Assembly: GCA_014729915.1 (NCBI GenBank)
Contig: WJJD01000058.1
Location: 18,293-82,292, forward strand
Origin: Candidatus Woesearchaeota archaeon
GTDB taxonomy: Archaea; Nanobdellota; Nanobdellia; Woesearchaeales; GW2011-AR15
Length of the DNA: 64,000 nucleotides
Reading direction: 5' to 3'
The notes below the pieces were generated by a model that was not told the origin of the DNA, made no database searches, and saw only the letters and a list, made by a program, of their open reading frames with translations. Positions 24,349 to 47,544 of the stretch are shown here, piece by piece (positions within the stretch are counted from its first letter, which is position 1; the number at the start of each line of letters is the position of its first letter). The position numbers and the translations under genes are program-made.

Positions 24349-26493
24349 ATGAAAAAGAAATACAGAAAATTCATCAGGCTCATCTTTTTTTTATTTTTAT
24401 TTTCAGTAATTATCAGATCAGCTCTATCAGACTGCACAGCAAACAACACTCCGCAGCTTAATCTTCCTGAAAACTTTAATCTTTATGAGGGAAAGCGCTT
24501 CTACTATGAAATAGATGTCAATTATTCATTTGGACACGACCTTTTATTTTCGTATAATCCGGTCAAATCTTCTTTTGAAAATTTTGAAATAAAAAACACA
24601 ACAGGGATAATTGATTTTATACCCCAAAAAAATGATGCAGGCCTTCAGAGAATAATAATTTTTGTGATAAATGAAAAAGAATGTTATGACACACAGCTCC
24701 TAAAATTTAAGATATTTGACAGCCCCGGGATAATATACCATTATCCTGAAGAAGAATATGTCATAATAAAGGAAGGAGAAAAAGAACGATTCTATGTGAA
24801 TGCCTCAACAGAAATCCTTGAAGATAACAAGTATTATTACAGGTGGCTCCTTAACCAGAACATCAGATCAATTGAAAATGAATTCATATATTCACCTGGT
24901 TTTTCTGATTCAGGAACATACAATTTAACTGTCATAGTTACAGATAAAAATCGACTGGAAACGAGTCACACCTGGAAAATAAGAGTAGAAAATGTTAACA
25001 GGAATCCGGTACATCTGAGAGATACCGGAGATATCTATGTTTCAGCAAATAGTAATTTTGAACTTTTTAATCTGAATGATTATTTTACTGATTATGACAA
25101 TGATACACTTGGCTTTGATTACTGGTTTATCAAAAACAGGACGAAAACAAAGGAATCTGAAAATTTTGATGTGAACATATCTGATTCAGGAGATGTTTCT
25201 GTAAAATCACTTACAAACAGCACAATTACAGAAAAATTAGAATTCAGGGCCGGTGACTCGTCAGGAGAATATGCATCAGGAACCACTTTTAACATAAGTT
25301 CAGTCAGCAAACAGAGTGCTGAAGATTTTTTCAGTACCGGGAACTGCACACCAGATATCAATTGCGGGGACTGGTCAGAATGCTTTTCAACTGGATTAAG
25401 AATAAGAAAATGCATTGATAATAACAACTGCACAAAACAGGACAAGGAACTCATTGAAACAGAGAAATGCGATTATTCCGCGGATTGCTTTGACGGTATC
25501 AGAAACCAGAAAGAAGAAGGGATTGACTGTGGAGGCCCGTGTCTTCCCTGTCCAAGCTGTTCAGACGGCCTGAAAAACCAGAATGAAGAAAAAACTGACT
25601 GCGGAGGTCCATGTGAAACTTGTCCTGACTGCTTTGATTTTATTAAAAACCAGGATGAGACAGATGTTGACTGCGGAGGCTCATGCAGGCCATGCAGGAC
25701 AGGAGAAGCATGCATAAAAGACAATGACTGCATAAGCCTGAACTGCAAAGAAAAAAAATGCATGAATGCTATCTGCAGTGACAGTATAAAAAACCAGGGA
25801 GAAGAGGATATTGACTGCGGAGGTCCATGTCCGGCCTGTGCAAACTGCACTGACAGCATAAAAAACCAGGAAGAAGAAGGGATTGACTGCGGTGGTCCCT
25901 GTGAGTCGTGTGCAACATGCAGTGACAACATTAAAAATCAGGGTGAGTTTTTAGAGGACTGCGGAGGTCCATGTAAAAACTGCTTTGCAGTATTTTTTGA
26001 AAAGGGATTTGAGAAGATTCCCCTGCCTGTTATCTTTGTATTTACGATAATAATAATAGTTGTCATACTCGGAAAGTTCTATGTCGAAAATGATGTTGAT
26101 CTATTGTTGACTTTGAGCAGATTTACTAAATTTATCATAAAAATCCCTGATCAAAAACTAGAAAAGGCAACAGATGAGACCATAGAAAAATTAAGAACCC
26201 TAAAACAGGAATTTCATGGATATAAGACGGATGAGGAGCTTGCAGAAAAATATAATGAGATAATCAACAATTATTTTCAGGATATTCTGGATATTGAAGA
26301 TGTCTTTACAATAGGAGTTCTTGAAAAGACTCTTAAAAAAAAGATAAAAAATATTTTTGCAAGAAGACTGCTTTTCCTGGTATATGAAAACTCATCAGTA
26401 TCATTAGAAGGAAACTTTTTTTTCAAATTAGAACTGGAGCACAATATCCAGGAAATACAGAATCTTCTAAGAAAGATAAAGCAGGCCTTATAA
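24349..26493 (+). CDS. Single-pass membrane protein with a signal peptide, an extracellular domain containing about 8 tandem Cys-rich ~24-aa repeats, one TM helix and a coiled-coil cytoplasmic tail. The ORF track starts it at 24235; I prefer the internal ATG at 24349.
   Basis: 'MKKKYRKFIRLIFFLFLFSVIIRSALS' is a classic n/h/c signal peptide beginning at the in-frame Met at 24349. The 24235 start overlaps the giant gene's stop. Repeats: 'CFDGIRNQKEEGIDCGGPCLPC', 'CSDGLKNQNEEKTDCGGPCETC', 'CFDFIKNQDETDVDCGGSCRPC' and similar. The TM helix is 'IPLPVIFVFTIIIIVVILG'. Confidence 0.7.
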   Translation: MKKKYRKFIRLIFFLFLFSVIIRSALSDCTANNTPQLNLPENFNLYEGKRFYYEIDVNYSFGHDLLFSYNPVKSSFENFEIKNTTGIIDFIPQKNDAGLQRIIIFVINEKECYDTQLLKFKIFDSPGIIYHYPEEEYVIIKEGEKERFYVNASTEILEDNKYYYRWLLNQNIRSIENEFIYSPGFSDSGTYNLTVIVTDKNRLETSHTWKIRVENVNRNPVHLRDTGDIYVSANSNFELFNLNDYFTDYDNDTLGFDYWFIKNRTKTKESENFDVNISDSGDVSVKSLTNSTITEKLEFRAGDSSGEYASGTTFNISSVSKQSAEDFFSTGNCTPDINCGDWSECFSTGLRIRKCIDNNNCTKQDKELIETEKCDYSADCFDGIRNQKEEGIDCGGPCLPCPSCSDGLKNQNEEKTDCGGPCETCPDCFDFIKNQDETDVDCGGSCRPCRTGEACIKDNDCISLNCKEKKCMNAICSDSIKNQGEEDIDCGGPCPACANCTDSIKNQEEEGIDCGGPCESCATCSDNIKNQGEFLEDCGGPCKNCFAVFFEKGFEKIPLPVIFVFTIIIIVVILGKFYVENDVDLLLTLSRFTKFIIKIPDQKLEKATDETIEKLRTLKQEFHGYKTDEELAEKYNEIINNYFQDILDIEDVFTIGVLEKTLKKKIKNIFARRLLFLVYENSSVSLEGNFFFKLELEHNIQEIQNLLRKIKQAL
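25480..25990 (+). repeat. Tandem Cys-rich repeat array, consensus about C-x-D-x-I-K-N-Q-x-E-E-x-I-D-C-G-G-P-C-x-x-C
   Basis: About 8 successive copies are read directly from the translation. The antisense ORF 25473..25931 carries the periodic 'GPPQSI' mirror image of this repeat. Confidence 0.7.
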
Positions 26494-26497
26494 TAAA

Positions 26498-29400
26498 ATG
26501 GATATGAAAATATTAAAAAACATAGTTTGTGTCATTCTTATTATTTTATCAGCCGGCACTGTAATTTCTCAGATATCTTCGGATAGTGATATTATACAGC
26601 TGGAAAAACAAAAATTCAACCGTTTAGAAAAAATACAGATTACCGTAAAAAACCATTCAGAAAAAAGATTAGTGATTTTATCAGAAAACAATTTTTATTC
26701 AATAACAGATCTTAAAAAAACAAATACTTTTCTTCCAACAAACCCAGGAGATTATCAGATAAGGCTCCTGGATAAAAATCAGGAAATACTCTTTCAGAAA
26801 AAGTTTCAGGTATCAGGCAGAAAATCCGCTCATGAATCTTTCGGAACAATAAAAATCATAAATAAGGATAACAAAGAGATATTTTCTGACTATAGGTTTA
26901 TATCAAAAAACAAAATAATTTCCGAAAATGAATTAATTTCTCCCGGGAATTATGATATTGAGATAGAACCTGAGAATATTGATATTAAAAAAATTAAATT
27001 TAATAAATTTAATTTTACAGGCCGGTTTTATATAAAGCTTGACAAAATCAACATTAAAAAGATCAGCAATAAAAAAATTGTTAAAGCATTTGCGATTGAT
27101 TCAAACAACCTGAAATTTGAAGAAACAGAGATTACTGCACAAGCAAAGGGAACAGAACTCTGGAAATGCAGTGATTTTGATTTTTCAGGAGAGCTATGCA
27201 GCAGCAAATGGAAGAAAATAAAAAATATAATTCCGGGAAATGAATATTTTATAACTGTATATGACAAAACAGCAGGATTTGCTGAAACAGGTGTTGCAAC
27301 AGTTAACACTGAAAAACCAATTTATCATCCTGATGAGATTGTTAACATATATATGGTTGTACTTGATAATTCTGGATTCCTGGTGACAAATGCTCATTTG
27401 AATCTTGAGATTACCTCTCCAAAAAATCAAAAGTATAATCTGAAAACACCCGGGGATATTAAAGAGATTAAAAAAGGAATATATCGGGCTGAATTTTCTC
27501 AAATTTCTGTTCCGGGAAATTATATAATGAAAGTTATTGCAAAAGCAGAAAATACTGACAGCGATCTTATAAGTTATTTTACTGTAAGGGATTCTTATGA
27601 GTTTGATATCCTGAGAAATAATCCTTTGACAATTGATCCCTGGAAAGGTCCCTTTTTTTCATCAATTAGCATAAGAACATATGTTGATGCATCTTATTTT
27701 TCTTTCACAGAAATACTGCCCTCATCATTTACAATACATGATTCCGGAACCGGACTTGTCACAAATCATCCAGACCATAAAGAAATCACATGGACTGGCC
27801 TTGAAAATGATTCAGAAGTCTATTATACTGCAAATTCTCCTCTTAAGACACCTGAACTCTATGAGATAGGGCCTTCAAGAATCAATTACGATGATAAGAT
27901 ATTTACTGAAGCAAGACCATGGTATCTTGCTGTTGATCCTGTATTAAATATCAATGCATCCGGCTGCAGTAAACATTCAAATGCAAGCTCTTCAAATACA
28001 TTTGATGATGCCTGTTCTGATCCATATAATCTGAGCCTTGAAGATGGGAATTACCAGATTGCGGATGCACAGCAGGATGATTACTGCGGTATTGAGGCAG
28101 TCTATAATCAGGATCTTGAGGATTGTGCAAAAATCAACAGGGTCGATGTCTGCATAGACTGGTGGTTTACAGGGACAGTCCTGGAATGCCTTGGAGTGAA
28201 TTTTACAGGAACCGGGACATCAGGAACATGGTATACAAGCCAGCTGAGCAGCTGTCCTGAAGCTAACGGGGATATGATATGCTCTGATGAGACATCTTAT
28301 TTTGACTGGAACTGCAATTCATTTACAGGTGATAATGCAGCAATAAGAGCCCAGTTGAGAAGCCAGACAGACTCTTCCCACTGCATCTATGATGCAGTTT
28401 ATTTTAATATCAATTATTCTGCATATCCGAATATAACCGGCAATATAACAAACAACGGGCCTGTAATACAAAGACACAATATCACTTTTACCGGAAATTG
28501 CACTGATCTTGATCCCGGTGATAATTTCCGGCTCATCGTATGCAACTCTTCAACTTCTGAATGCAATGCAACAACAGCAGGAAATGATCTTATATGTAAA
28601 GGAGAATTTACAGATTCAAATTCCCCCAATTGCACGTACACTGCAGGATATGATGATATTGGTTTACATACAGGCGATATAGGTACCTGCTGTGATGCTG
28701 AGGGAAACTGCAATCCTGTTCTTCATGATGTTGAGGACTGGCAAATCTTATCAGGAACCCCGGATCTTACAACAGAAACACAATTTATTCATTTTTCAGA
28801 TGAATCTCCGTCTGAATCAGAAAACATAACAATAAATTCAACAATAAAAAATATCGGAAACGGGACAGTCTATAACATAACAATACAATTCTGGGATGAG
28901 CATCCTGACAGCAACGGGCTAAAAATTAACGGAAACAGGACAATAGATAAGATAATGGATAAAAAAAATAAGACAATAAATATAACATATAAATTCACAA
29001 GCCCGGGCCCTCATGAAATCTATGTATTAATTGATCCTGGAGAAGATATACATGAATCAAACGAAACAAATAATGAGATATATAAAGTTATCAATGTACC
29101 TTCCTGGCATATTTATTTTGGAAATTTATCCTCGCTGATTGTGCTCGGAGATGCAGAAAATAAGACAAAGATAACCTGGAATTCTGAAAATCCTTCGATA
29201 ATCTATATTGTTGAATCCGGAACTGATATAAACTGGGATAACCTGCAGGCACTTACAAGAAACACAACTGATGAATATGAGTTCAATGATTTTGAAGAAT
29301 TTGATGATATGCTAAACATGACATATTTTTCAGATTCTGTAAATAATACATTTACAATAAATTTCCAGCCCAAAAAAACAGTTTCTTTTGAAATTTATGA

Positions 29401-29650: not shown

Positions 29651-29716
29651 GTTATCAAATTTTTCTTAAGCAAGATTTGATTATGAGATAATGTATATCA
29701 GACAAGAACACATATG

Positions 29717-29736: not shown

Positions 29737-29742
29737 TATAAT

Positions 29743-30491: not shown

Positions 30492-31433
30492 GTGAAAATG
30501 GGATTTTTAAAAAATATCTGTCTGGACTTGAGTTTCCTTGATATCAGAAGACTCTTGAAAAAAAATAAAGAGTCTGAGGAAAAAACTGAAAATCAACAAA
30601 TAAAAGAACAGGTTTCTCAATCTGATGAACCAAGACAGCCTCCCCGACTACCAAGATCTCTATTTGACAGAAAATCAAATCAGGTTGCACCTCCTGAGAA
30701 AGCACCCTCTACTCTTCCCGAGATATCTTATGATTTTTTCAAGAAACAAGGAAAAAAGAAAAACAAACAATCTCTTAAATCAAAACCAATCCAAAAACAA
30801 ATAACAGAGGAAAAACCATTTGAAAAAATCCCTGTATCAGAGAATACATTTTTCAATAATCTTGTTTCAGATCTTAAAAAAGATTCTCTGGAATACAGGG
30901 ATACAAAAAATGTTATTGTTGATGATCTGTTTTCTTCAATGAAGGAATTTTGGCAAAACAAAAAATATGATAGAGGCAATAAACAAAAATTAAATTTTAT
31001 CAAAAAAGAAGTAGTTGACAGGATGCAGGAGCTTCATGAGCTTGAGGTCGAGTGGCAGAAATCCAAGATCACTCATGAAACTCTGGGAGATAACCTACAT
31101 AAAAAAGAATTGGAAATTGAATCAAAAATAAGAGAACTTAAAAAGATCTTTCAAAAACACCATGCTCATATGGAGGTTAAACAGGAACTTTTTTTTAATG
31201 TAAAAAACGGCATGACAATAAAATCACTTTCAGAACTTAACGACAAGCTCCCTGAAATACCTGATGAAGTATTTTTTTTTCATGTTAATGAAAACAAAAA
31301 TGATTTCTCTACATGGATAAATGATGTTTTTGGTCTCAAAAACCTGGCAAAAGACCTTTCTGGAGCAAAATCAAGAAATGAATTTTCAGAAATTCTTGAA
31401 AAACATGTTTCAGATGAGGATTTTTCCATTTAA
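30492..31433 (+). CDS. Soluble, charged coiled-coil protein ending in the conserved ~70-aa 'HVNE-KNDFS-W' C-terminal domain
   Basis: The C-terminus 'FFNVKNGMTIKSLSELNDKLPEIPDEVFFFHVNENKNDFSTWINDVFGLKNLAKDL' aligns with the C-termini of the products of 45052..47544 and 51965..54850. No TM helix is present. A TATA-like 'ctataaaaaaatatatatac' lies at about 30445-30464. Confidence 0.7.
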   Translation: MKMGFLKNICLDLSFLDIRRLLKKNKESEEKTENQQIKEQVSQSDEPRQPPRLPRSLFDRKSNQVAPPEKAPSTLPEISYDFFKKQGKKKNKQSLKSKPIQKQITEEKPFEKIPVSENTFFNNLVSDLKKDSLEYRDTKNVIVDDLFSSMKEFWQNKKYDRGNKQKLNFIKKEVVDRMQELHELEVEWQKSKITHETLGDNLHKKELEIESKIRELKKIFQKHHAHMEVKQELFFNVKNGMTIKSLSELNDKLPEIPDEVFFFHVNENKNDFSTWINDVFGLKNLAKDLSGAKSRNEFSEILEKHVSDEDFSI

Positions 31434-31709: not shown

Positions 31710-31910
31710 ATGGTAACCTTAACAGAGTTTAAAAAGGAGTGGGTAAAACTTGTTTTTAATGAGACCCCGACTAAAGTAGTTGTTAAGCAGGGATACCTCT
31801 ATGATGATGGAGAATTCTATAAAGTGATCGGAGACAGATCAGAAACGCTTGTGCGCAAAGATAAAGTGATCAGTATAACTAAAAAATCTTTTAAAGGTGA
31901 TACAAAATGA
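31710..31910 (+). CDS. Small hypothetical protein (66 aa), translationally coupled to the next gene through an ATGA overlap
   Basis: ORF 'MVTLTEFKKEWVKLVFNETPTKVVVKQGYLYDDGEFYKV...'. Its stop overlaps the start codon of 31907. Confidence 0.4.
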   Translation: MVTLTEFKKEWVKLVFNETPTKVVVKQGYLYDDGEFYKVIGDRSETLVRKDKVISITKKSFKGDTK

Positions 31911-32734
31911 TAAAAAAAGATAGATCAGGAATTAGAAAAATTTTAGCTGTATTTTCAGCATTCATCATACTATCAATATTTGCTTATGCAGCATCAGATG
32001 ATGAGCCAATGCCACTAGAATCTCTCAATGCAACTGAAAACGAAAGGATAAATGTATCTCAGATACCACTTAAATCACATGATGCAGAAGCTGGTAATTT
32101 AACAAAATTGGTCCTATTCGGTAGATCTCAGACAAAGCACTGGCAGGGTTATTACGGAGACATCACAGGTACAATAACATTGGATGATGCTCAGAACTGG
32201 ACATTATATGACTGGGACAATCCTGAGCCCAAAGGAGAGATATATGCAGTAGCAAACACTTCAGGTACAACACCCTCCTGGAGTACAGTCGAATGCTTTA
32301 ATTATACTCAGGAAACAGCAGGAGCAGCATGGGCAAACGGAAACACTACACTTGACAGGTGGGAGACATATTACAACATGACGTGGAATGACGTTGACGG
32401 GATCAATGAGACATTCAATGTGACAACTCATCTTGGATTTTCAGTCGGCTCATATACAATAGATGCTGATTCTTGCCCTGCAACATATACGTATGTAAGT
32501 GATGCATATCAGCAGGACAAATTCAGTGAAATATTGCTCCAGACTGATGAAGCCCAGCTGGTCTTTGCAACAATCATTGAAAACGATGATGAAGCAAATA
32601 ATACAGACCCTACAGGTTTTGATGATGTAGCGCATGACTTCCAGATGCTTGTAGCTGAAGACGGAACGAGTCTTAGTGCAGGTGAGATCAATGAGGATCC
32701 CACAACTTATTATTTTTACATAGATATAGAGTAA
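31907..32734 (+). CDS. Secreted ~250-aa protein, paralog family P1, with a signal peptide and a C-terminus of ...TYYFYIDIE
   Basis: Signal peptide 'MIKKDRSGIRKILAVFSAFIILSIFAYA'. The shared core 'HWQGYYGDITGTITLDDAQNWTLYDWDNPEPKGEIYAV ... STVECFNYT' aligns with the products of 32802 and 36006c. It has many N-x-S/T sequons. Confidence 0.75.
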   Translation: MIKKDRSGIRKILAVFSAFIILSIFAYAASDDEPMPLESLNATENERINVSQIPLKSHDAEAGNLTKLVLFGRSQTKHWQGYYGDITGTITLDDAQNWTLYDWDNPEPKGEIYAVANTSGTTPSWSTVECFNYTQETAGAAWANGNTTLDRWETYYNMTWNDVDGINETFNVTTHLGFSVGSYTIDADSCPATYTYVSDAYQQDKFSEILLQTDEAQLVFATIIENDDEANNTDPTGFDDVAHDFQMLVAEDGTSLSAGEINEDPTTYYFYIDIE

Positions 32735-32801: not shown

Positions 32802-33560
32802 ATGGAAAAAAAAATAAAACATCGGGATTTTCAGGCAATTCTTCTTGTTTTATTTTTATTGATAATTTATTTTTCAATTGTTATTGCAGCTGAACCTGAA
32901 GGAGGCACAATTGATTTTAAATCAAATTCAACAAAAAATATTACTCCTCCAAGTTCAAGAAATGACACAAAGGGAACAATTACAACTATTGTTATGACAG
33001 CCACACAACAAAACACAAAATGGAAAGCATATGTCGGAAATGTGACAGGAACTCTTGTCTTGAGAGATGCGGCAGATTACAGTATTTATGAATGGACATC
33101 AATCGGAGATCCGACAGGAGAAGTATATATAACAAGGAATGATTCAATAGAATGGTCAAATATCAAGTGTGCAAATTCAACAATTATTGACAGTGAGCAG
33201 GTCTTTTTAAATCATTCACCTACATCCCGGGATAATATCAACAATACTTTTTCAAATCAGGCCCATGATTCATTCTGGGTTGGTGACGTTACCGAAATTC
33301 AAAACAGCACCTGTTGGGGTACAGCAACCTGGATAAATGATTCTTCCCAGACAATTAATGAAGATTCACTGTTCCAGGAGATATTATTGTATGACAATAC
33401 AAATCTTATATATACAACCATAATAGAACAGAATCTCCAGGGATACAGAAATGATTCCGCAACAACTTATGATTTCCAGGCAATACTTCCTGATAATGCA
33501 TTACCCGGAAGCACCGGACAGGTAACATATTATTTTTATGTTGAGATCGAGTCAGGATAA
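32802..33560 (+). CDS. Secreted ~250-aa protein, paralog family P1, ending ...TYYFYVEIESG
   Basis: Signal peptide 'MEKKIKHRDFQAILLVLFLLIIYFSIVIAAEP'. Core 'KWKAYVGNVTGTLVLRDAADYSIYEWTSIGDPTGEVYITRNDSIEWSNIKCANSTII ... NLIYTTIIEQN'. Confidence 0.75.
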   Translation: MEKKIKHRDFQAILLVLFLLIIYFSIVIAAEPEGGTIDFKSNSTKNITPPSSRNDTKGTITTIVMTATQQNTKWKAYVGNVTGTLVLRDAADYSIYEWTSIGDPTGEVYITRNDSIEWSNIKCANSTIIDSEQVFLNHSPTSRDNINNTFSNQAHDSFWVGDVTEIQNSTCWGTATWINDSSQTINEDSLFQEILLYDNTNLIYTTIIEQNLQGYRNDSATTYDFQAILPDNALPGSTGQVTYYFYVEIESG

Positions 33561-33561
33561 A

Positions 33562-34506
33562 ATGAAAAAAAATAAATTCAATAAAAAAACTTTAATGCTT
33601 ACGATAGGTCTGCTTATCTGCTTTATCTTTTTATTCTCCTGGCTTTCCTTATTAAAGATTCCAAAAGCAACAAGTTATCTAGGGGCTGATATAAACCAGA
33701 CACTAAATACAACTGTAAATATTACAAATGCACAGCCAGAAGTAAGAACCGTTGCAATGGATTCTCCTATTGATCTTGAGGCATACGGAAACAGAACAGT
33801 GTACTGCAATACAACTGTTTTTGACTGGGATAATGACACCCTTACTGTAAATGCCAGCTTTTACATTGAGGGCCTTACAGATCCATTTTCCTCTGTAGAC
33901 AATAACAATAAGTATGATAATGTAACCTGCACCAGAACAAGTCCGCAGGACAGGGAAATGAATTATACCTGTACAGTTGACATGACTTATTACACTGACA
34001 ACTCTTCGCAATGGAGATGCAATGTAACAGCAAAGGATGATGATAATGCAACTCACACCAATGTTTCGGATTATGCAGTAATAAATCCCCTGACAGCAAT
34101 CTATGTTCCCGGAGTCCTTGATTTCGGGGAGCTTGCAGTAAACGATATATCTGATGATAAATTGGCAAATATAACAAATGCAGGGAATAGGAATATCAGC
34201 ATTTATGTTGAGGGATGGGGTGCAGAAAAAGGAGACGGGCTTGCTATGAACTGTTCTTATGGTTCAATTGATTCAAGCTATGAAAGATATAATCATACAC
34301 AGTCCGGATTGAGCTGGGAAACTGAATTAAAGGAAGTTACAAATGAATCTGTAAGGATTGATGGTTTTACAGTATTTCACAGGTTTGATGATTCTTCTTC
34401 CTCTGGGTCAACAAATTCAACCTACTGGAAATTAAAGATTCCGGCTTTTGCAGGTGGTATTTGCAATGGAAAAATATTATTCACTGCAGAGGATGACGGA
34501 ACCTGA
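33562..34506 (+). CDS. Secreted/anchored ~315-aa protein, paralog family P2, with a 'LLKIP' motif after the N-terminal hydrophobic segment and a C-terminus of ...GGICNGKILFTAEDDGT. I start it at 33562 rather than the track's 33538.
   Basis: The ATG at 33562 immediately follows the upstream stop at 33558-33560 and yields 'MKKNKFNKKTLMLTIGLLICFIFLFSWLSLLKIP'. The protein aligns over its full length with the product of 54872..55780 and with the C-terminal ~300 aa of the product of 56694..60077: 'NQTLNTTVNITNA.PEV', 'PLTAIY[VI]P', 'NITNAGN', 'YWKL[KE]IP'. Confidence 0.7.
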   Translation: MKKNKFNKKTLMLTIGLLICFIFLFSWLSLLKIPKATSYLGADINQTLNTTVNITNAQPEVRTVAMDSPIDLEAYGNRTVYCNTTVFDWDNDTLTVNASFYIEGLTDPFSSVDNNNKYDNVTCTRTSPQDREMNYTCTVDMTYYTDNSSQWRCNVTAKDDDNATHTNVSDYAVINPLTAIYVPGVLDFGELAVNDISDDKLANITNAGNRNISIYVEGWGAEKGDGLAMNCSYGSIDSSYERYNHTQSGLSWETELKEVTNESVRIDGFTVFHRFDDSSSSGSTNSTYWKLKIPAFAGGICNGKILFTAEDDGT

Positions 34507-36005: not shown

Positions 36006-36731
36006 TCACGCAAGCTCAATCCAGAAAAAATAAGGAGTAGACTGCTCTCCGGGAAGATCCTTTTCAGGTACAATCATCTGGAAATCATAGTTTTTGAAAT
36101 TAAAACCCTGCTCTTCATCATGCAGAAGAGTTGTATATATAAGGTTAGTTTTATCAGTCAAAAGCACTTCCTGGAACAATGCATCTTCTGTTACTGTCTG
36201 CTGAGTATTGTTGACCCAGGTAGCAGTAGATCTGCATGTGCTGTTTTCAATATAAGTTGTGCCAACATAAAATTCCTTGTGTATTTCATATTCAAACGTG
36301 TTGTTTATGCTGTCTTCATTAGAGAAAGTATGATTCATTGCAGTCTCCTCACCAGAGATTATTGTGTGATTTGCACATTCTATGCTGTTCCAGTCCACAG
36401 AATCATTTCTTGAAGCATAGACCTCTCCTGTGACAGTTGTCAATGACCAGTCATAGATAGTATAGTTATCTGCATCATCAAGAGTGAATTTTCCTGAAAT
36501 ATTACCTACATATGCTTTCCATCTGGGATTTTGGGTCTCGCCATAAAGTATGAGGGTTGTAAACGTCCCGCCCGAAGTATTTACAAATGATGCAGGTTCA
36601 GAGTCTTTAGTCTCTGAATTGCTGTACGGAATCATGGCACCTGTAGGCTCAATTGCATAAGAGATTCTGAATAAGATTGCAAAAAAGACCAGGATAAATC
36701 CTAATATCCGGATTAATCTCTTATTTTTCAT
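36006..36731 (-). CDS. Secreted ~240-aa protein, paralog family P1, ending ...PYFFWIELA
   Basis: Signal peptide 'MKNKRLIRILGFILVFFAILFRISYA'. Core 'RWKAYVGNISGKFTLDDADNYTIYDWSLTTVTGEVYASRNDSVDWNSIECANHTII ... NLIYTTLLHDE'. Confidence 0.75.
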   Translation of the reverse strand: MKNKRLIRILGFILVFFAILFRISYAIEPTGAMIPYSNSETKDSEPASFVNTSGGTFTTLILYGETQNPRWKAYVGNISGKFTLDDADNYTIYDWSLTTVTGEVYASRNDSVDWNSIECANHTIISGEETAMNHTFSNEDSINNTFEYEIHKEFYVGTTYIENSTCRSTATWVNNTQQTVTEDALFQEVLLTDKTNLIYTTLLHDEEQGFNFKNYDFQMIVPEKDLPGEQSTPYFFWIELA

Positions 36732-37590: not shown

Positions 37591-39276
37591 ATGAAAAAAA
37601 AAGGTATTGAATCTGTGGAGCAGTGGATGTGGATTATTGCGGGCCTTGCAATAGCAACCCTAATTATTATTGGAGGGTACAGCATTATTTCTCAGTTAGT
37701 TGCAGACAAACAACTTAAAGAAACAATGGATACTTTCAATAATTTAAAAAACAGGATACAGGATCTGTGTTATAGAAATAAAAAATCACAGGAAATTCAC
37801 TACATGAAGATCAGCGACATTGTAAAAGAGATCTCTGTAAGAAACAGCACAACCATGAGGACAGGCAACGGAACAATGCTTTGTATTGAAATTGAAGACA
37901 AGAACCGGGAATGCCAGCAATTAAAAAACTGCGTATATGATCTTGTTCCTATAAGATTCCAAAAACAGCAAAACATATTTTCAACAATCCAGAAAGCGCT
38001 TGGCAGCTCAAGATCTGCAAAAATTGCTGTATTGATAACAAAAGGGACATTTGATAAGGTTTTTGTTACCTGGACAGAAGTGTTTTCAGAAGACCAGATC
38101 GGATCCGAAGTGAACAAAGAGATTTTCTCTAAAACAAAGCAATATGTAATTTCATATGAATACCACAAATTAATCAATGATATAAAAGAGATAATACAGG
38201 AAGTTTCAGAAATTAAGACAAGTTCAGTGAATAAAAACCTCGATTTTCCTACAGAAGTTGAAAAAATGTATTTTTTTAACCTTTCTGAAGAACTTAAAGA
38301 GCTTGACTATAAGGAAAATCTTAATCTTCATGAAAAAATAAAATCATATGATGAATCCAATTTATTTTTTATACAGGAAAGGGGAGCACTTAAATCCTAC
38401 CGGATTGAAGGATTGGATCTGCAGGAGCCGAATTATCTGTGCGTCAAAAATATCGACGGGAGGATGAGGCTTAATTTTGAGAGCACGGGAAATGGAGTAA
38501 ATATATTAACCCGGGATTCAGACTCAGACTGCACTTATCCTGTGATTGCAAGAGAAGTTGCAACTTATCTTGAAAAAGAGTCCTCAGAAGAATTTGAACA
38601 GGAGATGGAGTCATTAAAAGAATCAATAGAAAATGATTTTCCCGAAGTTTCAATTGATTATGAGCTGGATTATGATCCTGTTGAAGATAAGACCAAAGCA
38701 AGTATCAAATTCTCATCCTCACTGGATGCTGAGAATTTCAGATTAATTCATTTTATCCCGAAGTGTATGCTTCAGCTGGCTGATGAATTGTCTTTTAGTT
38801 ATGAAGGAAAGCAGCCGGAGGAGATAGAGATATTGAGGGAGGATCCATTGATAATGTGGCACTTTAATGAAATTGATCTTGAAAAAACTTCTATAAATTA
38901 TGAAAAGAGCGGCAAGGTGGATGAATTCTGCGAGGAACTTCTCACTAATTTTTTAGTATCTGTTAGGAGAAGGGATGGCTTTTTCGGAAAGCATAAAAAA
39001 CCAGGCATTTACAAATTCGATGATTCAGATTTTGATGAGGAAAAAAATTATGAAGATTTATATCCTGATGATTTGGACAATGATGGATTTCCGGATGAAT
39101 GGGAGGATATGTATGGGTATAACAAAAGGAATAAGAATGATCCCGGAGAATCTTCTGATCATGATAGTGACGGCGCAGATTCAAGAGCAGAATACAATCA
39201 TAACATGGATCCGAAAAATCCCGATACTGACGGAGATGGTATACTGGATGGAGCAGAGATTCAGGAAGAAGAATAG
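37591..39276 (+). CDS. Type IV pilin-like (class III signal peptide) protein of 561 aa with C-terminal thrombospondin type-3-like Ca-binding repeats
   Basis: N-terminus 'MKKKGIESVEQWMWIIAGLAIATLIIIGGY': basic residues, then Gly, then Glu at +5, then a 20-aa hydrophobic stretch. C-terminal D-x-D-x-D-G motifs: 'DDLDNDGFPDEWED ... DHDSDGADSRAEYNHNMDPKNPDTDGDGILDGAEIQ'. Confidence 0.5.
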   Translation: MKKKGIESVEQWMWIIAGLAIATLIIIGGYSIISQLVADKQLKETMDTFNNLKNRIQDLCYRNKKSQEIHYMKISDIVKEISVRNSTTMRTGNGTMLCIEIEDKNRECQQLKNCVYDLVPIRFQKQQNIFSTIQKALGSSRSAKIAVLITKGTFDKVFVTWTEVFSEDQIGSEVNKEIFSKTKQYVISYEYHKLINDIKEIIQEVSEIKTSSVNKNLDFPTEVEKMYFFNLSEELKELDYKENLNLHEKIKSYDESNLFFIQERGALKSYRIEGLDLQEPNYLCVKNIDGRMRLNFESTGNGVNILTRDSDSDCTYPVIAREVATYLEKESSEEFEQEMESLKESIENDFPEVSIDYELDYDPVEDKTKASIKFSSSLDAENFRLIHFIPKCMLQLADELSFSYEGKQPEEIEILREDPLIMWHFNEIDLEKTSINYEKSGKVDEFCEELLTNFLVSVRRRDGFFGKHKKPGIYKFDDSDFDEEKNYEDLYPDDLDNDGFPDEWEDMYGYNKRNKNDPGESSDHDSDGADSRAEYNHNMDPKNPDTDGDGILDGAEIQEEE

Positions 39277-39336: not shown

Positions 39337-39840
39337 ATGATATATGACAGGAATCAGTTTGTTTTTAATATTGTCCTTTCTCTATTGCTGATTATCATGA
39401 TACTTGTATGCGGATTTTTTGGATACAAATTCATACAAATCAAAAACCAGATGGAAGATATCAATACCAATCTTGAAGAGATTGAAAAAAACCAGCATTA
39501 TACAAATTATATACAGGCAAGTCATCAGGACATAAGATTTCAGTTGTCTCCTGAAGGATTTTTTATATATGGAGCTGATGATTACGGGACTTTGCAGGGA
39601 CCATCAATGCAGCCGTCCATCTTTGACAGCCATACTCTCATCCAGGTAAAATATACTGATCAGAATCTCTCAGAAGGCCAGATTGTAAGATACTATGACT
39701 CTGAAAGGACTCCTGTAATCCACAGGATAAGGGGAGTATACAATAACACAGTGAAAGTCCAGGGAGACAACCTGGACCAGGATGAGATTATTGAAAAGAA
39801 CCAGATAACTCATCTCATTCTCGGAGTACTTTTTACATAA
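39337..39840 (+). CDS. Signal peptidase I, S26 family, archaeal/eukaryal Sec11-type (Ser/His)
   Basis: N-terminal TM anchor 'FVFNIVLSLLLIIMILVCGFFGY'. Box B is 'GPSMQP' (Ser nucleophile). Box C-like is 'GQIVRY'. Box D is 'VIHRI' (His general base). Box E is 'GDNLDQDE'. Confidence 0.7.
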   Translation: MIYDRNQFVFNIVLSLLLIIMILVCGFFGYKFIQIKNQMEDINTNLEEIEKNQHYTNYIQASHQDIRFQLSPEGFFIYGADDYGTLQGPSMQPSIFDSHTLIQVKYTDQNLSEGQIVRYYDSERTPVIHRIRGVYNNTVKVQGDNLDQDEIIEKNQITHLILGVLFT

Positions 39841-42307: not shown

Positions 42308-42375
42308 ATAAATAAGGTATAAACAACCTTTCATATTTAAGGAAGCAGATACAAAGATTGGTTTTATTTTACCTC

Positions 42376-43012
42376 AAAATTTGCTTAAGCAAATTTTGAT
42401 AAGGGTTTAAAGCCCCGAGCTTTAGGTCGTTTTGTTCTTTGAAAAAATTTAAATTGCGGCTTCGCCGCAGTATGTACTGCGGACGAAGTTGCGCAATTAC
42501 TAAAGACCATTAAACTAGTGTTAACTTTCTTCCGCGGAGGCGAAAATTGATAAATACATAGTTGAGTCGGTTAAGCCACAAAGTTGGAACAAATTTTTGG
42601 CATTTGGAATGGTGTCCAAAATATAAATATAAAATGATGAGGAAGTATGGAAATAAAAATCTTGTAAAAGCAGCAATAAGAAAATTTGCCAAAAAACATG
42701 AGATTAAAATAAACTATATTGCTGTTTTACCAGAACATGTTCATCTATTGTGTACATTGCCAAGAGGAAAGACAGATTCTTGGGCATTTCATAAACTTAA
42801 AGGAGGTTCAGCTTACCTAATTTTCAAGAATAAAGAAAAATTTCGTCTGCGATATCCGCAAGGGCATTTTCGGTCCCCCGGGGGTGTGTGCAGTTACAGG
42901 TGGAAACAATGATCTAACTGATATAATTGTTTATATTAAAAAGTCAAGAAAAACGTCATGGTGTTTTGTAAAATTAAACACTCCACGTAAAGCCCTGCCA
43001 TTTATGGCAGGG
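42376..43012 (+). mobile_element. Degenerate IS200/IS605-family element: a 22-bp perfect palindrome, an imperfect subterminal hairpin, a tnpA-like ORF, and a perfect 8-bp-stem hairpin at the right side
   Basis: AAAATTTGCTTAAGCAAATTTT at 42376..42397. The imperfect IR 'TTGCGGCTTCGCCGCAGTATGTACTGCGGACGAAGTTGCGCAA' at about 42454-42496. The hairpin CCCTGCCA-TTTA-TGGCAGGG at 42993..43012. No tnpB is present. Confidence 0.4.
42562..42912 (+). CDS. tnpA: IS200/IS605-family TnpA-like HUH (Y1) transposase, probably C-terminally truncated or inactive
   Basis: 'WHLEWCPKYKYK' matches the 'H.V..PKYRRK' strand. 'LPEHVHLLCTLP' is the HUH motif (compare 'MPDHVHLLVSIP'). 'KLKGGSAYLI ... GHFRSPGG' matches 'LKG.SSR.L ... 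GHLWSPSYF'. The ORF ends soon after, before the usual C-terminal Tyr helix. Confidence 0.5.
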   Translation: MSRLSHKVGTNFWHLEWCPKYKYKMMRKYGNKNLVKAAIRKFAKKHEIKINYIAVLPEHVHLLCTLPRGKTDSWAFHKLKGGSAYLIFKNKEKFRLRYPQGHFRSPGGVCSYRWKQ

Positions 43013-43465: not shown

Positions 43466-43960
43466 TCAGCAGTCTTCAATCTGAGTGATATCTGCTGAAT
43501 ATGCCCTATCTATACAGTTATAAGTTGTACCATCTGCTGATCTTATCATCGGAATTATCTGGACCTGCCTTACTCCATTAAGGCCTGCGGTACTGTAAGT
43601 GAAGTTGAAGATGTCACTCTGTCCTGAAGTCAAAGCATATCCTGTACTTGAGTTTGTGTAAATATCATCATTTCCGATGACCTGGAAAAACATATCTACA
43701 ATATTTCTTGATCCTCTGTTAATCAATGTTGTTTTTATAGTATTTGTGTCCTTGCACACATCATAAACATCATTGATAACCATAGGTTTTAATACAACTT
43801 CTGTTCCGCATTCGAGTTTTACAGTCTCTCCTCCGATTTTGTCTACGCTCTCTTCTGTCATCCCCCGAAGGAATACTGAGATGAAAGCACCTACTGAAAC
43901 AACAACTAATACAAGAATAATTGCTCCTAAAAAAGTTGAGACACCTCTTTTATCATTCAT
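43466..43960 (-). CDS. Archaeal type IV pilin-like protein with a class III signal peptide
   Basis: 'MNDKRGVSTFLGAIILVLVVVSVGAFISVF': a short basic n-region, a K-R-G cleavage motif, then a 20+-residue hydrophobic segment typical of archaeal pilins/archaellins. Total length 164 aa. Confidence 0.6.
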   Translation of the reverse strand: MNDKRGVSTFLGAIILVLVVVSVGAFISVFLRGMTEESVDKIGGETVKLECGTEVVLKPMVINDVYDVCKDTNTIKTTLINRGSRNIVDMFFQVIGNDDIYTNSSTGYALTSGQSDIFNFTYSTAGLNGVRQVQIIPMIRSADGTTYNCIDRAYSADITQIEDC

Positions 43961-44092
43961 GTTATCACCTTATAATCTAAAATATTTCATTTTAAGTATT
44001 TAAATATTTCTGATTTATTTTTCAAAAATGAAATATATATTTCTAAAATAAATAATATTTTTTAAAAAAGAAAATATTTATATAAGAAGACT

Positions 44093-44362
44093 TTGTTAAT
44101 ATACTGCATGGAAAATTTTTTTAAGGGATTGATTGATAAAAAAACATTAAGGATTCTAAATCTGCTTTTTGAACACGGAGATGACCTTTGGCACATAAAA
44201 AAGATTTCAATAGAGTCAGAAGTGCCCTTATCAACCACCTTTAGAATAATAAAAAAATTTTTGAGATTAAATATTGTTGAAAAAAGTCTTGTCGGGAAAT
44301 TAAAAATATATAAGCTGGCAAAAAACAAAAAAACAGACTATTTAAAAAGAGTTTTAAAATGA
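44093..44362 (+). CDS. Small winged-helix DNA-binding transcriptional regulator of the ArsR/TrmB type
   Basis: 'KKTLRILNLLFEHGDDLWHIKKISIESEVPLSTTFRIIKKFLRLNIVEK' has the helix/turn/recognition-helix/wing pattern. An alternative start is at Met6 (44108). Confidence 0.45.
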   Translation: MLIYCMENFFKGLIDKKTLRILNLLFEHGDDLWHIKKISIESEVPLSTTFRIIKKFLRLNIVEKSLVGKLKIYKLAKNKKTDYLKRVLK

Positions 44363-45048
44363 AAAAAATAATCTTAGTCTTTTCAGTAATTACTTTTTTA
44401 TTATTATTTATCTTTTCTTCCCTTTTGTTTTTTGATGAATTGAAACTAATTAATAACAGGATAACCGGCGCAGCTGAGCTGGATACTGCTGTAATCATAA
44501 TAAATGTGAGTTCTGCTGTATGCTCCTCTAATTTTTCACAAGGTTATAATCTTGTATCAATACCCTGTGTTCCAAAACCTGCACCAGTTTCAGAAGTTTT
44601 AGAATCAGTTGAAGAAAACATTGTATCTATCCATCATTATGTGCCTTCCTCCGCAGATCCCTGGAAAACATATAATCCGGAGCTTCCTTCCTGGGCAGTG
44701 CAGGATTTAACTGAAATTGACAGGAAAAAATCATACTGGCTCAACCTGGATTCAAACGTGACATTTCAGTTGAATTCAAGCACAGCTTCTCCAAATTATA
44801 TTTATACAAAACAGGGGTGGAACATGATAGGCTATCCCACATTGACCCCTGTAGAAATTGGTGAGGCATTGGTTTCAATCAATCAGAGCTATGATATCCT
44901 ATATTCATACAACACTTTAAACAATTCCTGGGAGGAATATACCTGGAACAGCAGCAAATCTTCAGAACAAAATATTATCAATATGACTCCATATACAGGA
45001 TATTGGATCAAAATGCTTAGAAATGAGACACTGCTCATAGACTGGTAA
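44359..45048 (+). CDS. Hypothetical secreted/anchored protein (229 aa)
   Basis: N-terminal hydrophobic segment 'KIILVFSVITFLLLFIFSSLLFF'. ATGA overlap with the upstream gene. Confidence 0.5.
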   Translation: MKKIILVFSVITFLLLFIFSSLLFFDELKLINNRITGAAELDTAVIIINVSSAVCSSNFSQGYNLVSIPCVPKPAPVSEVLESVEENIVSIHHYVPSSADPWKTYNPELPSWAVQDLTEIDRKKSYWLNLDSNVTFQLNSSTASPNYIYTKQGWNMIGYPTLTPVEIGEALVSINQSYDILYSYNTLNNSWEEYTWNSSKSSEQNIINMTPYTGYWIKMLRNETLLIDW

Positions 45049-45051
45049 AAA

Positions 45052-47544
45052 ATGAAAAAATACATCTTAATATTAATTGCAATCATATTTTTGCAGATGA
45101 ATGTTTCAGCACAAATTCCGGCATACAGGGACCTTCCATTTCTTTCAACAGAATTTTACGGTACTGCAACAGTTTATGATCTTAACAGTACAGCCTTTGA
45201 AGCCGGCACAAGAATAGATGCCTATGCATATGAAACATTATGCGGTACATTTTATATAGAAAATGAAGGCTATTACGGATCATTGACCTGCAGAGCAGAC
45301 GATAATAACACTAATGAGACAGAGGGTGCACTACAGGGCCAGAATATAATATTCAGGATAGATAATCAGACAACTCTTAGCTCAGGAGATACAGTCTGGT
45401 ACCAGGGGGAATTCCAGAGGGTTGATCTTGCATTGGCTCCCGGTTGCCCGAACGGGTGGTGTGAAATAGGAGAGAGCTGCGTTAATTGTCCGGAGGACTG
45501 CGGGGTATGCCCCCCTCCGGGAGCAGGCCAAGGAGGAGAAGGAGGAGACGGGGAAGGAGGTGATTCAGGAGATTCAGATAACAGTGATGAAGAGGATGGA
45601 GGTGCCGGCGAGGATGAAGGAGATTCTGCAGCAGGTGCCGGTTCAGGTGATATCAGTTTCAGAGAAGGAAGAGATACAATGCAGAATCTTTCCATGGAAT
45701 TATGCAAAGAAGACTGGTTCTGCACTGCCTGGATTCCTGACCCCTGCCCTATTTCAGGAGAGCAGACAAGAAACTGCACAGATATCAACAATTGCAATAC
45801 AACTTTTACAAAACCAGAAGAAAAACAGAACTGCACATATGAAGGGACATGTTTTGATTATATATTAAACCAGGATGAGACAGATATTGACTGCGGGGGA
45901 AAAATTTGTGAGGGATGTGAGAATGATAAAAGATGCAAAAAAGACAGAGACTGCGTTTCGGGATTCTGCAATCCTTTTGAAGAGGTCTGCAGAACCCCTG
46001 TCTGTGATGACGGTATAAAAAACCAGGGGGAGCAGGAAATTGACTGCGGGGGTCCCTGTCCACCATGTCATCCTGAAGAGATGCCGATTCTTGAACAACC
46101 CGGAAGAATCATCCGATTTGTCGTGGCAGGATGCGGACCGTTCCCCTGGGGCATATTGATGATATCTTCAGTTGGCATATTATTATGTTATGTTCTTGGT
46201 AAAGTCTATATAAAAAGATATCAAAATAAAAGGAAATTTACCAGGCTGGATAGACTTGATAAGCTGAATAAAAAATACAGGATGGAGCGTTATCTAAACT
46301 TGTTTATTATAAATGGGATACTTGTTATGTTGTCTATTTGTTTATACTTATATTATTTCTGCGAGATCGTGGTATGGATATTTATCATGGTGATGCTTAT
46401 AATTCCTTTAATTACAGGCTTTACAATAAAGCTGCTTGTCTATGATGAAAAACGAAAACAGGAAAGATTCAGGAGACTGATAATATCGCATGAAGAAGAG
46501 TTAAGTAAAATTATCAGGTTAAAGAATACCCAGATAAATGAAATTGAAAAAGATATAATAAACAGATTAGAAAAAATAATTTTTTCAGGTTCGTTAAAAC
46601 CTGCGATGAGAGATCATCTGTCAAGGCTCCTCAAACTTATCAAAACCCACAATAAGATGGATATTTCAGATCCTGATCTTGAAAAAAATATGATAGACAA
46701 AATTGATGAGATAAAAGACAAAAATAACTCCAAAAACAAAATACTCTCACAGGCAATGGATTCTCTTAATCTGTTGAAAAAAATTTTTAATGATAAGGCC
46801 GGTCAGGAAAAGGAATTGGGAAAAGACGAGAAAATTGAAAAAAACATTGAAGAGGGAAGCCAAAATAAAGAAAATAAAGAAATGGATAATCTAAAAAAAA
46901 ACAAAACACATAATTCGGACTATTTTGATGATATTGACGAAAAAGCAGATAAACAGATACTAAAACTCGAAAAAAAACAGATGGAAAAGCAGCTAGAGCG
47001 GGAAGTGGAAAAAAGGCATACAAAAGAACTTCAAACAAAGAAAAAATATGATTATTCAAAAAAAGCAGAAAATCCATTTAAGATAATAAACACACGAATA
47101 GCAAATACAATAAATGAGCTGATAACAGACATAAAAAACATGAACGAATCAGATTATTATTTTCACAATAATGAGCTCAGGAATGACTTTTCAGAATGGA
47201 TAAGCGGAGAATTCGGGTATGGTGCACTGGCTGAAAAAATTAATCATATCAAGGCAAGACAGGATCTTCTTAAAATTCTGGAATCTTCTGGAAAGTATGT
47301 AAAAGACAAAAAAACTGGCAAAAAACTATTCAGGCTCAATAGCGGTAAAACAATAGAGACTATAGATGAATTAAAAAATGAGTTAGGGAAAATGGATGAT
47401 CAGGAATTTTATTTGTATGTGAATGAATTAAGAAATGAATTTTATTATTGGATTAAAAATAAATTGGAAAAAGATAAACTTGCTGAAAAACTAAGATATG
47501 TGAAAACAAAGAAGGAAATGATTGAAATCTTAAAAACATACTAA
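45052..47544 (+). CDS. Membrane protein with a signal peptide, a Gly/Asp/Glu-rich acidic low-complexity region, Cys-rich 'IDCGGPC' repeats, TM helices, and a Lys/Glu coiled-coil cytoplasmic tail carrying two copies of the 'HVNE-KNDFS-W'-type domain
   Basis: Signal peptide 'MKKYILILIAIIFLQMNVSA'. Acidic region 'PPPGAGQGGEGGDGEGGDSGDSDNSDEEDGGAGEDEGDSAAGAGSGD'. Cys-rich 'CFDYILNQDETDIDCGGKICEGC ... CDDGIKNQGEQEIDCGGPCPPC' and 'C.DW.C ... NNC' resembling the 24349 protein. TM segments at 'GILMISSVGILLCYVLG' and 'GILVMLSICLYLYYFCEIVVWIFIMVMLIIPLITGF'. Tail copies 'YYFHNNELRNDFSEWISGEFGYGALAEKINHIKARQDLLKIL' and 'FYLYVNELRNEFYYWIKNKLEKDKLAEKLRYVKTKKEMIEIL'. Confidence 0.75.
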   Translation: MKKYILILIAIIFLQMNVSAQIPAYRDLPFLSTEFYGTATVYDLNSTAFEAGTRIDAYAYETLCGTFYIENEGYYGSLTCRADDNNTNETEGALQGQNIIFRIDNQTTLSSGDTVWYQGEFQRVDLALAPGCPNGWCEIGESCVNCPEDCGVCPPPGAGQGGEGGDGEGGDSGDSDNSDEEDGGAGEDEGDSAAGAGSGDISFREGRDTMQNLSMELCKEDWFCTAWIPDPCPISGEQTRNCTDINNCNTTFTKPEEKQNCTYEGTCFDYILNQDETDIDCGGKICEGCENDKRCKKDRDCVSGFCNPFEEVCRTPVCDDGIKNQGEQEIDCGGPCPPCHPEEMPILEQPGRIIRFVVAGCGPFPWGILMISSVGILLCYVLGKVYIKRYQNKRKFTRLDRLDKLNKKYRMERYLNLFIINGILVMLSICLYLYYFCEIVVWIFIMVMLIIPLITGFTIKLLVYDEKRKQERFRRLIISHEEELSKIIRLKNTQINEIEKDIINRLEKIIFSGSLKPAMRDHLSRLLKLIKTHNKMDISDPDLEKNMIDKIDEIKDKNNSKNKILSQAMDSLNLLKKIFNDKAGQEKELGKDEKIEKNIEEGSQNKENKEMDNLKKNKTHNSDYFDDIDEKADKQILKLEKKQMEKQLEREVEKRHTKELQTKKKYDYSKKAENPFKIINTRIANTINELITDIKNMNESDYYFHNNELRNDFSEWISGEFGYGALAEKINHIKARQDLLKILESSGKYVKDKKTGKKLFRLNSGKTIETIDELKNELGKMDDQEFYLYVNELRNEFYYWIKNKLEKDKLAEKLRYVKTKKEMIEILKTY

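Follow-up and report, generated by a model that had tools for sequence, protein, structure and literature searches.

The DNA analysed here is a 64-kb window (64,000 nucleotides; positions 18,293 to 82,292 of contig WJJD01000058.1 from a Candidatus Woesearchaeota assembly) with a GC content of ~35%, crowded with genes for large secreted and membrane proteins. Two of these proteins, p1 (the product of 24349..26493) and p2 (the product of 45052..47544), both encoded on the forward strand, carry tandem copies of a short cysteine-rich repeat, here called unit A, and a pattern search of the window in six frames showed that its core motif, DCGG-x(1,2)-C-x2-C, is confined to them. The open reading frame (ORF) of p1, 752 aa long, opens at 24235, and its likely start is M39 at 24349 (MKKKYRKF, followed by a hydrophobic signal segment). 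The order of parts is common to both proteins, i.e. signal peptide, ectodomain, repeats and then a transmembrane helix, which according to a hydrophobicity scan begins 11 residues (p1) or 21 residues (p2) past the last unit. Because the N-terminal segment is signal-like and the helix comes right after the repeats, the latter form the membrane-proximal part of the ectodomain. The parts of the two proteins are the following:

24349..26493 (+): p1, a type I surface protein; its Ig-like ectodomain follows a signal peptide, and its Cys-rich stalk leads into a transmembrane helix and ~140 aa of cytoplasmic tail.
25345..25485 (+): upstream six-Cys element of p1, C-x5-C-x2-W-x2-C-x3-G-x3-R-x-C-x-D-x3-C-x12-C.
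25486..25551 (+): p1 unit A1, CFDGIRNQKEEGIDCGGPCLPC, located (like all A units below) with a regular expression.
25558..25623 (+): p1 unit A2, CSDGLKNQNEEKTDCGGPCETC.
25630..25695 (+): p1 unit A3, CFDFIKNQDETDVDCGGSCRPC.
25696..25773 (+): p1 unit B, RTGEACIKDNDCISLNCKEKKCMNAI, C-x5-DC-x4-C-x4-C; a predicted small beta-hairpin module with short beta bridges in the AlphaFold2 (AF2) model.
25774..25839 (+): p1 unit A4, CSDSIKNQGEEDIDCGGPCPAC.
25846..25911 (+): p1 unit A5, CTDSIKNQEEEGIDCGGPCESC.
25918..25983 (+): p1 unit A6, CSDNIKNQGEFLEDCGGPCKNC.
26017..26073 (+): p1 transmembrane helix, IPLPVIFVFTIIIIVVILG, Kyte-Doolittle 19-mer mean 3.01.
45052..47544 (+): p2, a surface protein. Its signal peptide and ectodomain are followed by an acidic Gly-rich linker and the Cys-rich stalk; after 2-3 transmembrane segments come a coiled coil and a DUF5752-like cytoplasmic region.
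45703..45849 (+): upstream six-Cys element of p2, from BLASTP against p1 and multiple alignment.
45850..45918 (+): p2 unit A1, CFDYILNQDETDIDCGGKICEGC, with one extra residue between G17 and the third Cys.
45919..46002 (+): p2 unit B, ENDKRCKKDRDCVSGFCNPFEEVCRTPV, between the two A units of p2.
46003..46068 (+): p2 unit A2, CDDGIKNQGEQEIDCGGPCPPC.
46132..46197 (+): first transmembrane segment of p2 after the repeats, from hydrophobicity.
46357-46413 (+): second strong hydrophobic segment of p2, from hydrophobicity.
46930..47541 (+): DUF5752-like cytoplasmic region of p2, with a repeated 'F/YxHxNELRNxF..WI' motif (Pfam PF19027, E 3.4e-8, in three stretches).

Unit A spans 22-24 residues with four Cys, in the pattern C-x-D-x3-N-x2-E-x3-D-C-G-G-x-C-x2-C. 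A first-pass annotation of this DNA, made from the sequence alone, had quoted three peptides from p1, which are present exactly as its units A1, A4 and A5, and had counted about eight consecutive copies there. The repeat is real, but there are six copies and the array is broken by unit B, so that its order is A-A-A-B-A-A-A; the count reaches eight only if unit B and the upstream six-Cys element are included. The two copies claimed for p2 are confirmed, with a unit B between them. Ten positions (C1, D3, N7, E10, D14, C15, G16, G17, C19 and C22) are kept in all eight units of the window, and the consensus of 317 distinct units from the family is C-[ST]-D-G-[IV]-[QK]-N-[QG]-x-E-[TE]-[GD]-[IV]-D-C-G-G-[PS]-C-x-x-C. 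The period from unit to unit is 24-25 residues, or 48-51 residues where a unit B is interleaved.

At the DNA level, the units of the window have a mean column identity of ~73%, with Cys codons mixed between TGC and TGT. These are therefore old repeats under protein constraint, on which conservation acts at the level of the protein. A recent tandem duplication of the DNA was rejected on the same identity value and because the units are individually orthologous to those of a Woesearchaeota protein. This protein, encoded in a metagenome-assembled genome (MAG), is a full-length orthologue of p1 (38% identity over 711 aa) with a conserved cytoplasmic tail; its array aligns without gaps and in the identical A-A-A-B-A-A-A order, and the atypical 'EFLE' stretch of unit A6 in p1 is 'EIFK' in the orthologue. 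Since the order is the same at only 38% identity, the length of the array is under constraint, and the orthologue makes a Woesearchaeota-like DPANN archaeon the most likely source of the window.

The similarity between p1 and p2 is limited to the Cys-rich stalk (32% identity, E 6e-24, BLASTP). Their N-terminal ectodomains, that of p1 giving a weak match to the Ig-like Pfam family Big_9, and their cytoplasmic tails are unrelated, and coiled-coil and DUF5752-like sequences are found in the tail of p2 and not in that of p1 (Pfam). The two proteins are thus modular relatives, not full-length paralogues: their earlier description as paralogous holds only for the stalk, and that as membrane proteins is borne out by the signal peptide and helix in both.

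The DUF5752-like C-terminal motif, 'F/Y-x-H-V-N-E-x-K-N-D-F-S-x-W...', is found in several copies in p2 and recurs at 31170..31360, in a 313-aa protein (ORF 30492..31433, E 1.7e-5), and at 54620..54800, in a 961-aa Ig-domain membrane protein (ORF 51965..54850, E 1.7e-3). It may be an intracellular docking module common to several surface proteins of the locus.

Two further Cys-rich elements accompany unit A in both proteins. Unit B, which interrupts both arrays, is a separate four-Cys unit (C-x5-DC-x4-C-x4-6-C), and its interleaving with unit A recurs in 160 A-B-A fragments from 120 listed homologues. N-terminal to both arrays is a W/R-rich module of ~47 residues with six Cys (C..W.C..W..C...G...R.C.D...C). 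That an upstream Cys-rich element is shared, as the first-pass annotation had proposed, is borne out by BLASTP and by an alignment of p1, p2 and the homologues P0003, P0104, P0105, P0219, L001 and L007, where seven Cys (six from the element and one, the first, from the next unit A), W, R and D are among the invariant residues. We take this element to look like a thrombospondin type 1 repeat, a six-Cys family with a layered W-x2-W / R-x-R motif, given its W..C..W..C...G...R.C pattern; searched against Pfam, including PF00090, it gave no match at E ≤ 10. Searches of the word-indexed database with the p2 A-B-A fragment or with the alignment of the upstream element returned no matches, such short queries sharing too few 5-mers.

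Unit A is widespread. Run against the word-indexed database at E ≤ 1e-3, the Cys-rich region found 2491 proteins, among them ones from Nanoarchaeota/Nanobdellota, Woesearchaeota, Altiarchaeota, Myxococcota, Bacteroidia and bdelloid rotifers (Adineta and Rotaria). A profile of three units, compared with 1.84 billion proteins, matched the representatives of 6788 clusters (50% identity) at E ≤ 1e-3, of which 2970 also pass E ≤ 1e-10. An origin by chance or as a low-complexity artefact was rejected on these numbers and on the conservation of the unit. Among the top matches, the strict unit pattern occurs up to 39 times per protein (median 8). In the species-representative genomes of GTDB, searched with one 76-aa fragment, at least 430 loci encode the repeat. 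The archaeal carriers among the matches listed are Woesearchaeota, Nanoarchaeota, Altiarchaeota, Aenigmatarchaeota, Nanohaloarchaea and Methanosarcinales MAGs, and the bacterial ones Saprospiraceae, Chitinophagales, Flavobacteriales, Cytophagales, Myxococcota/Polyangiaceae and Gracilibacteria (candidate phyla radiation, CPR). An 830-aa protein from a Methanosarcinales MAG has the same layout as here, with an ectodomain, an element of the thrombospondin-like W/R type, four A units, a transmembrane helix and a cytoplasmic coiled coil. A signal-like hydrophobic start is present in 90 of 122 complete homologues, and a hydrophobic helix lies within 60 aa of the last unit in 24 of 258.

Four bdelloid proteins of Rotaria and Adineta (P0057, P0074, P0108 and P0119) have alternating A-B repeats very similar to the bacterial ones, some of them together with LamG, which suggests horizontal acquisition or assembly contamination.

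The domain partners of the unit were taken from Pfam scans of two sets of long homologues (9 and 10 proteins). Proteins secreted by the type IX secretion system (T9SS) of Bacteroidota have arrays of 5-19 units separating their globular domains; the arrays come directly after reprolysin-like M12B, M43 (pappalysin-type), Endonuclease_1 and CAP domains; further partners are CarboxypepD_reg, RCC1, tyrosinase with OmpA, and FG-GAP with Disintegrin-type repeats. Judged from these sequence contexts, unit A is a promiscuous extracellular spacer. It is conceivable that the unit is instead a ligand-binding module similar to the low-density lipoprotein receptor class A repeat (LDLa), which would use an acidic, Ca2+-loaded face to bind glycans or basic residues of a host cell or substrate, making the arrays multivalent receptors or adhesins. 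The conserved acidic residues and the tandem multivalency fit such a role, as do the co-occurrence with domains typical of adhesion or binding (F5/8 type C, PAN, LamG, CBM and FG-GAP) and the probable nature of the organism, a DPANN episymbiont needing attachment to its host. However, units next to the membrane and covered by large N-terminal domains are badly placed to meet ligands, the surface positions outside the acidic and amide residues are few and their conservation gives no sign of a common ligand, and the use between unrelated enzymes in T9SS proteins suits a generic spacer better. We therefore regard ligand binding as rather unlikely.

Regarding the identity of the unit, the first-pass annotation had assigned it to no named family, and no significant Pfam match has turned up to change this: whole p1 and p2 gave no match over the repeats to Pfam or NCBIfam at E ≤ 10. 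When 130 diverse A-B-A fragments were compared singly with Pfam at the same threshold, no family recurred (any one family matched at most 6 of the 130) and none of the families matched was LDLa, Notch, TNFR, Disintegrin or DUF4215; Dumpy_DPY matched two fragments (best E 0.021). Precomputed Pfam domains over the repeat are absent among the 2491 homologous proteins, PDB sequences gave no meaningful match with the protein query and none with a profile of 110 units, and literature text searches (for motif strings, and for Cys-rich proteins of DPANN or Woesearchaeota) found no description of the repeat. Looked up by its exact sequence, p1 had no database record.

The small size of unit A sets it apart from the modules it had been likened to. 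LDLa and the Lin-12/Notch repeat (LNR) have 35-40 residues, six Cys and three disulfides, with the Ca2+ motifs D-x-S-D-E (LDLa) and D-G-G-D-C (LNR), and the cysteine-rich domain of the tumour necrosis factor receptor (TNFR) has ~40 residues with six Cys in A/B sub-modules. Like LDLa and LNR, unit A is a small tandem extracellular module with conserved acidic residues and, presumably, disulfides, which amounts to a common design principle; in contrast, it has four Cys in 22-24 residues, and there is no structural match. The likeness to LDLa and LNR suggested earlier thus fails on their defining features, and the Cys patterns of LDLa, LNR and TNFR all differ from that of unit A. LDLa (PF00057) was rejected on Cys number and length and because no hidden Markov model (HMM) match was found in p1 or p2 (E ≤ 10) or in the 130 fragments; LNR (PF00066) because unit A has four Cys and D-C-G-G, not D-G-G-D-C, and no Pfam match; the TNFR domain (PF00020) on the four Cys and the lack of an HMM match. 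The Myxococcus cysteine-rich repeat (TIGR02232 / PF13948 DUF4215) was rejected as well, with no NCBIfam or Pfam match at E ≤ 10, and its motif CGNG..E.GE.CDDGN...DGC is absent from 260 homologues.

The small Cys-rich module with invariant acidic residues that the first-pass annotation had described is genuine, with the addition of an invariant amide. D3, N7, E10 and D14 are invariant in the eight units of the window and nearly so throughout the family. Among 1015 distinct strict units, positions 3 and 7 are occupied by D/N in 892, N/D in 98, D/D in 12 and N/N in 2 (Fisher p ~1e-119, a value that overstates independence since the counts include related units), and their coupling is one of the two strongest after average-product correction. 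Units with the swapped pair (N3/D7) occur in 42 of 219 proteins, 37 of which also carry canonical units. The near absence of N/N, the rarity of D/D and the coexistence of swapped and canonical units point to one shared site, with one amide and one carboxylate at positions 3 and 7; these sequences indicate that the tetrad would be a single site requiring three carboxylates and one amide.

A similar arrangement exists in the structural Ca2+ site II of the disintegrin domains of ADAM proteins and P-III snake venom metalloproteinases (SVMP). The site has the consensus XCGN(X)3EXGEXCD, which places N at i, E at i+4 and i+7, and D at i+10 after a Cys. The ion, bound by Asn408, Glu412, Glu415 and Asp418 and by two carbonyls, is buried and resists EDTA (PMC4885070). 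The consensus sequences were confirmed in the PDB entries of ADAM/SVMP reference structures (2DW0, 2ERO and 3G5C). In both site II and unit A, ligands or candidate ligands lie at i, i+4 and i+7 after a Cys, a final Asp precedes Cys-Gly, and three carboxylates are combined with one amide. The Ds ('shoulder') segment of ADAMs and P-III SVMP is disulfide-rich and without regular secondary structure, as unit A is predicted to be, and it comes directly after an M12B domain, like unit A in Bacteroidota proteins. On the other hand, the last ligand is at i+10 in ADAM and at i+11 in unit A, the units are self-contained tandem repeats with four Cys, the folds do not match, and Ca2+ in unit A is only presumed. 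With regard to the earlier suggestion of Ca2+ binding, the D3/N7 to N3/D7 swap and the spacing similar to ADAM site II lend it indirect support, but neither proves it.

These resemblances also raise the question of whether unit A is a highly diverged form of the disintegrin Ds segment, of the Myxococcus repeat (DUF4215) or of LNR/LDLa, too short for HMMs to recognize. The motif C-x-[DN]-G-x2-[NE]-x2-E-x2,3-D-C-G resembles 'CGN(X)3EXGEXCDCG' of ADAMs, the Bacteroidota units follow a reprolysin-like M12B domain as disintegrin domains do in ADAMs, and unit A co-occurs with Pfam Disintegrin-type repeats in one homologue (P0148, see below). The disintegrin domain (PF00200) was, however, rejected as the family of unit A, as the solved structures of this domain in ADAM and SVMP showed no similarity to the unit, either in sequence or in fold. 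We consider this divergence from a known family quite improbable. A wider scenario is that unit A is an ancient module of new fold, with a Ca2+ site and two disulfides, found in all three domains of life and sharing ancestry with the ADAM disintegrin Ca2+ site. The combination of metzincin and module in Bacteroidota would then be a prokaryotic forerunner of the metalloproteinase-disintegrin architecture, and DPANN would have recruited the module as a host-contact stalk. We regard this scenario as unlikely.

The homologue P0148 (869 aa, Myxococcota-type; region of interest, residues 480-869) combines six copies of unit A and one of unit B with FG-GAP repeats, several copies of a repeat that Pfam assigns to the Disintegrin type ('CR..x..CD.AE.C.G.S..CP.D', E 2e-13) and a MYXO-CTERM-like end. 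Unit A and the Disintegrin-type repeat are therefore distinct modules that can occur together in one protein.

As to the Cys residues, the first and last units of the arrays are complete (C1 to C4), and each unit is therefore self-contained, presumably with two disulfides of its own. Variant units of the homologue P0223 lack the second Cys and have the fourth at another position, with the first and third in place, which fits C1-C3 and C2-C4 pairing. Alternatively, the Cys might form no disulfides and bind a metal (Zn2+ or an Fe-S cluster), the arrays being extracellular metal-binding or redox modules of anaerobes. Many carriers do come from anoxic sediments or groundwater, each unit has four invariant Cys, and the junction between units, C-x3-C-x2-C-x2-C, is the reverse of the ferredoxin pattern C-x2-C-x2-C-x3-C. 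However, the junction pattern is lost at unit B, at linkers and at first and last units, yet the four Cys are invariant; in addition, the module occurs in secreted proteins of aerobic Bacteroidota and rotifers, and AF2 gives a confident model whose local matches are disulfide knots. Metal binding by the Cys is thus very improbable.

This model, of the A3-B-A4 fragment of p1, was obtained with an alignment of 130 sequences of natural A-B-A fragments, and has a mean predicted local distance difference test score (pLDDT) of 91.9 and a predicted template modelling score (pTM) of 0.70, all five models scoring at least 84. It contains almost no regular secondary structure, only short beta bridges and a hairpin in unit B, which is what one would expect if disulfides and an ion stabilise the fold. 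Compared with the PDB, it has no structural neighbour: the Foldseek matches are local only (22-28 residues, root-mean-square deviation 0.3-0.8 Å, E 0.2-9) and probably cover unit B with flanking Cys. A viral library gave weak local matches to baculovirus conotoxin-like peptides and Pithovirus transmembrane proteins (E ≥ 0.2). Knottins (spider and cone-snail toxins and baculovirus conotoxin-like proteins) are the sole structures that come near the model, locally and always with E ≥ 0.2; their Cys spacing consensus is not that of the units, and they are free peptides as opposed to a membrane-anchored repeat array. Thus, although unit A occurs thousands of times across all three domains of life, it belongs to no curated family, its structure has not been solved and no structural neighbour is detectable.

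Precedents for such a design are the Dumpy DPY module of Drosophila (PDB 1OIG, Cx5Cx5Cx4C) and the avian CREMP module (Cx4Cx5Cx8C), tandem modules with two disulfides each, paired C1-C3 and C2-C4, which form extended extracellular structures (PMC12723725). Like them, unit A has four Cys in a module of 20-25 residues, forms long head-to-tail extracellular arrays, and would have the same pairing; the Cys spacing of DPY is nearly that of unit B. Unit A differs from both in its Cx13Cx3Cx2C spacing and in the invariant D-N-E-D tetrad, both absent from DPY and CREMP.

Taken together, we consider it probable, though well short of certain, that unit A is a mini-module with two disulfides and a probable Ca2+ ion, and that its arrays form a stiff stalk or spacer. 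The four Cys would form two disulfides, most likely C1-C3 and C2-C4, and D3, N7, E10 and D14 one buried structural cation site, most likely for Ca2+, so that head-to-tail A units would build a stiff, protease-resistant rod. In p1 and p2 this rod would also include the DPY/CREMP-like beta-hairpin unit B and be capped by the thrombospondin-repeat-like element. It would serve as the membrane-proximal stalk of two type I surface proteins in a Woesearchaeota-like archaeon, keeping the N-terminal domains, which are presumably adhesive, at a set distance from the membrane, while the cytoplasmic tails differ between p1 and p2. In Bacteroidota, Myxococcota and rotifers, secreted proteins would use the same module to space out their catalytic or binding domains.

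Several points weigh against the stalk model, besides the relatedness of the units behind the covariation of positions 3 and 7. Both Ca2+ binding and disulfides are read from sequence, and since AF2 places no ions, neither the geometry of the tetrad nor the disulfide pairing is taken from the model. The AF2 prediction for an A-A-A fragment (54-sequence alignment) is poor (pLDDT 60), and the stiffness of the rod is our assumption. The HMM of the unit scores nothing on ADAM and SVMP disintegrin domains, even with filters off, and the parallel with their Ca2+ site is therefore a motif resemblance only and not demonstrable homology. Finally, many of the host organisms inhabit anoxic environments, where disulfides are not certain to form outside the cell.

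The design principle, a small, disulfide-rich, acidic tandem extracellular module, is well known, while this particular module is uncatalogued; it brings no new biological principle and opens no long-standing question. Nevertheless, it is present in thousands of surface or secreted proteins of DPANN and other archaea, Bacteroidota, Myxococcota, CPR and bdelloid rotifers without a curated family or solved structure, and its definition would annotate a large block of 'hypothetical' sequence. In addition, it would provide a handle on the architecture of host-contact surface proteins in episymbiotic archaea, add a very compact, possibly Ca2+-dependent rod element to the few known tandem mini-modules, and make it possible to test whether the ADAM disintegrin Ca2+ site has prokaryotic roots.

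The rest of the window contains further genes of related interest. Directly upstream of p1, a giant ORF of 8049 aa (89..24238, +) is repeated internally in blocks of ~1000 aa with many N-x-S/T sequons, and is probably co-oriented surface machinery. The C-terminus (39130..39276) of ORF 37591..39276 has acidic D-x-D-x-D-G repeats like the Ca2+-binding thrombospondin type 3 repeats of bacteria (PF18884, E 1.7e-4, under the curated cut-off), a second candidate Ca2+ module of the locus; the next gene, 39337..39840, resembles signal peptidase I, with weak S26/S24 matches below the curated cut-offs. Two sets of paralogous small secreted proteins or domains are without a Pfam match: the first (31907..32734, 32802..33560 and 36006..36731 on the reverse strand) ends in '...YYFY(I/V)(D/E)IE', and the second (33538..34506, 54872..55780 and 59000..60077) starts with 'LNTTVNITNA(Q/A)PEV', its domain being also the C-terminus of a 1127-aa ORF (56694..60077). 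An IS200-like Y1 transposase (PF01797, E 1.6e-12) is encoded at 42562..42912 (+), among the surface-protein genes. Directly after p2, the region 48270..51520 holds three genes, one for an ATP-grasp protein like glutathione synthetase (PF02955, E 2.9e-25), one for a class-II amidotransferase-like protein (GATase_4) and one, on the reverse strand, for a member of the GCS2 glutamate-cysteine ligase family. Genes such as these, for the synthesis of low-molecular-weight thiols, are unusual in a DPANN-like genome, and here they adjoin those of Cys-rich surface proteins.

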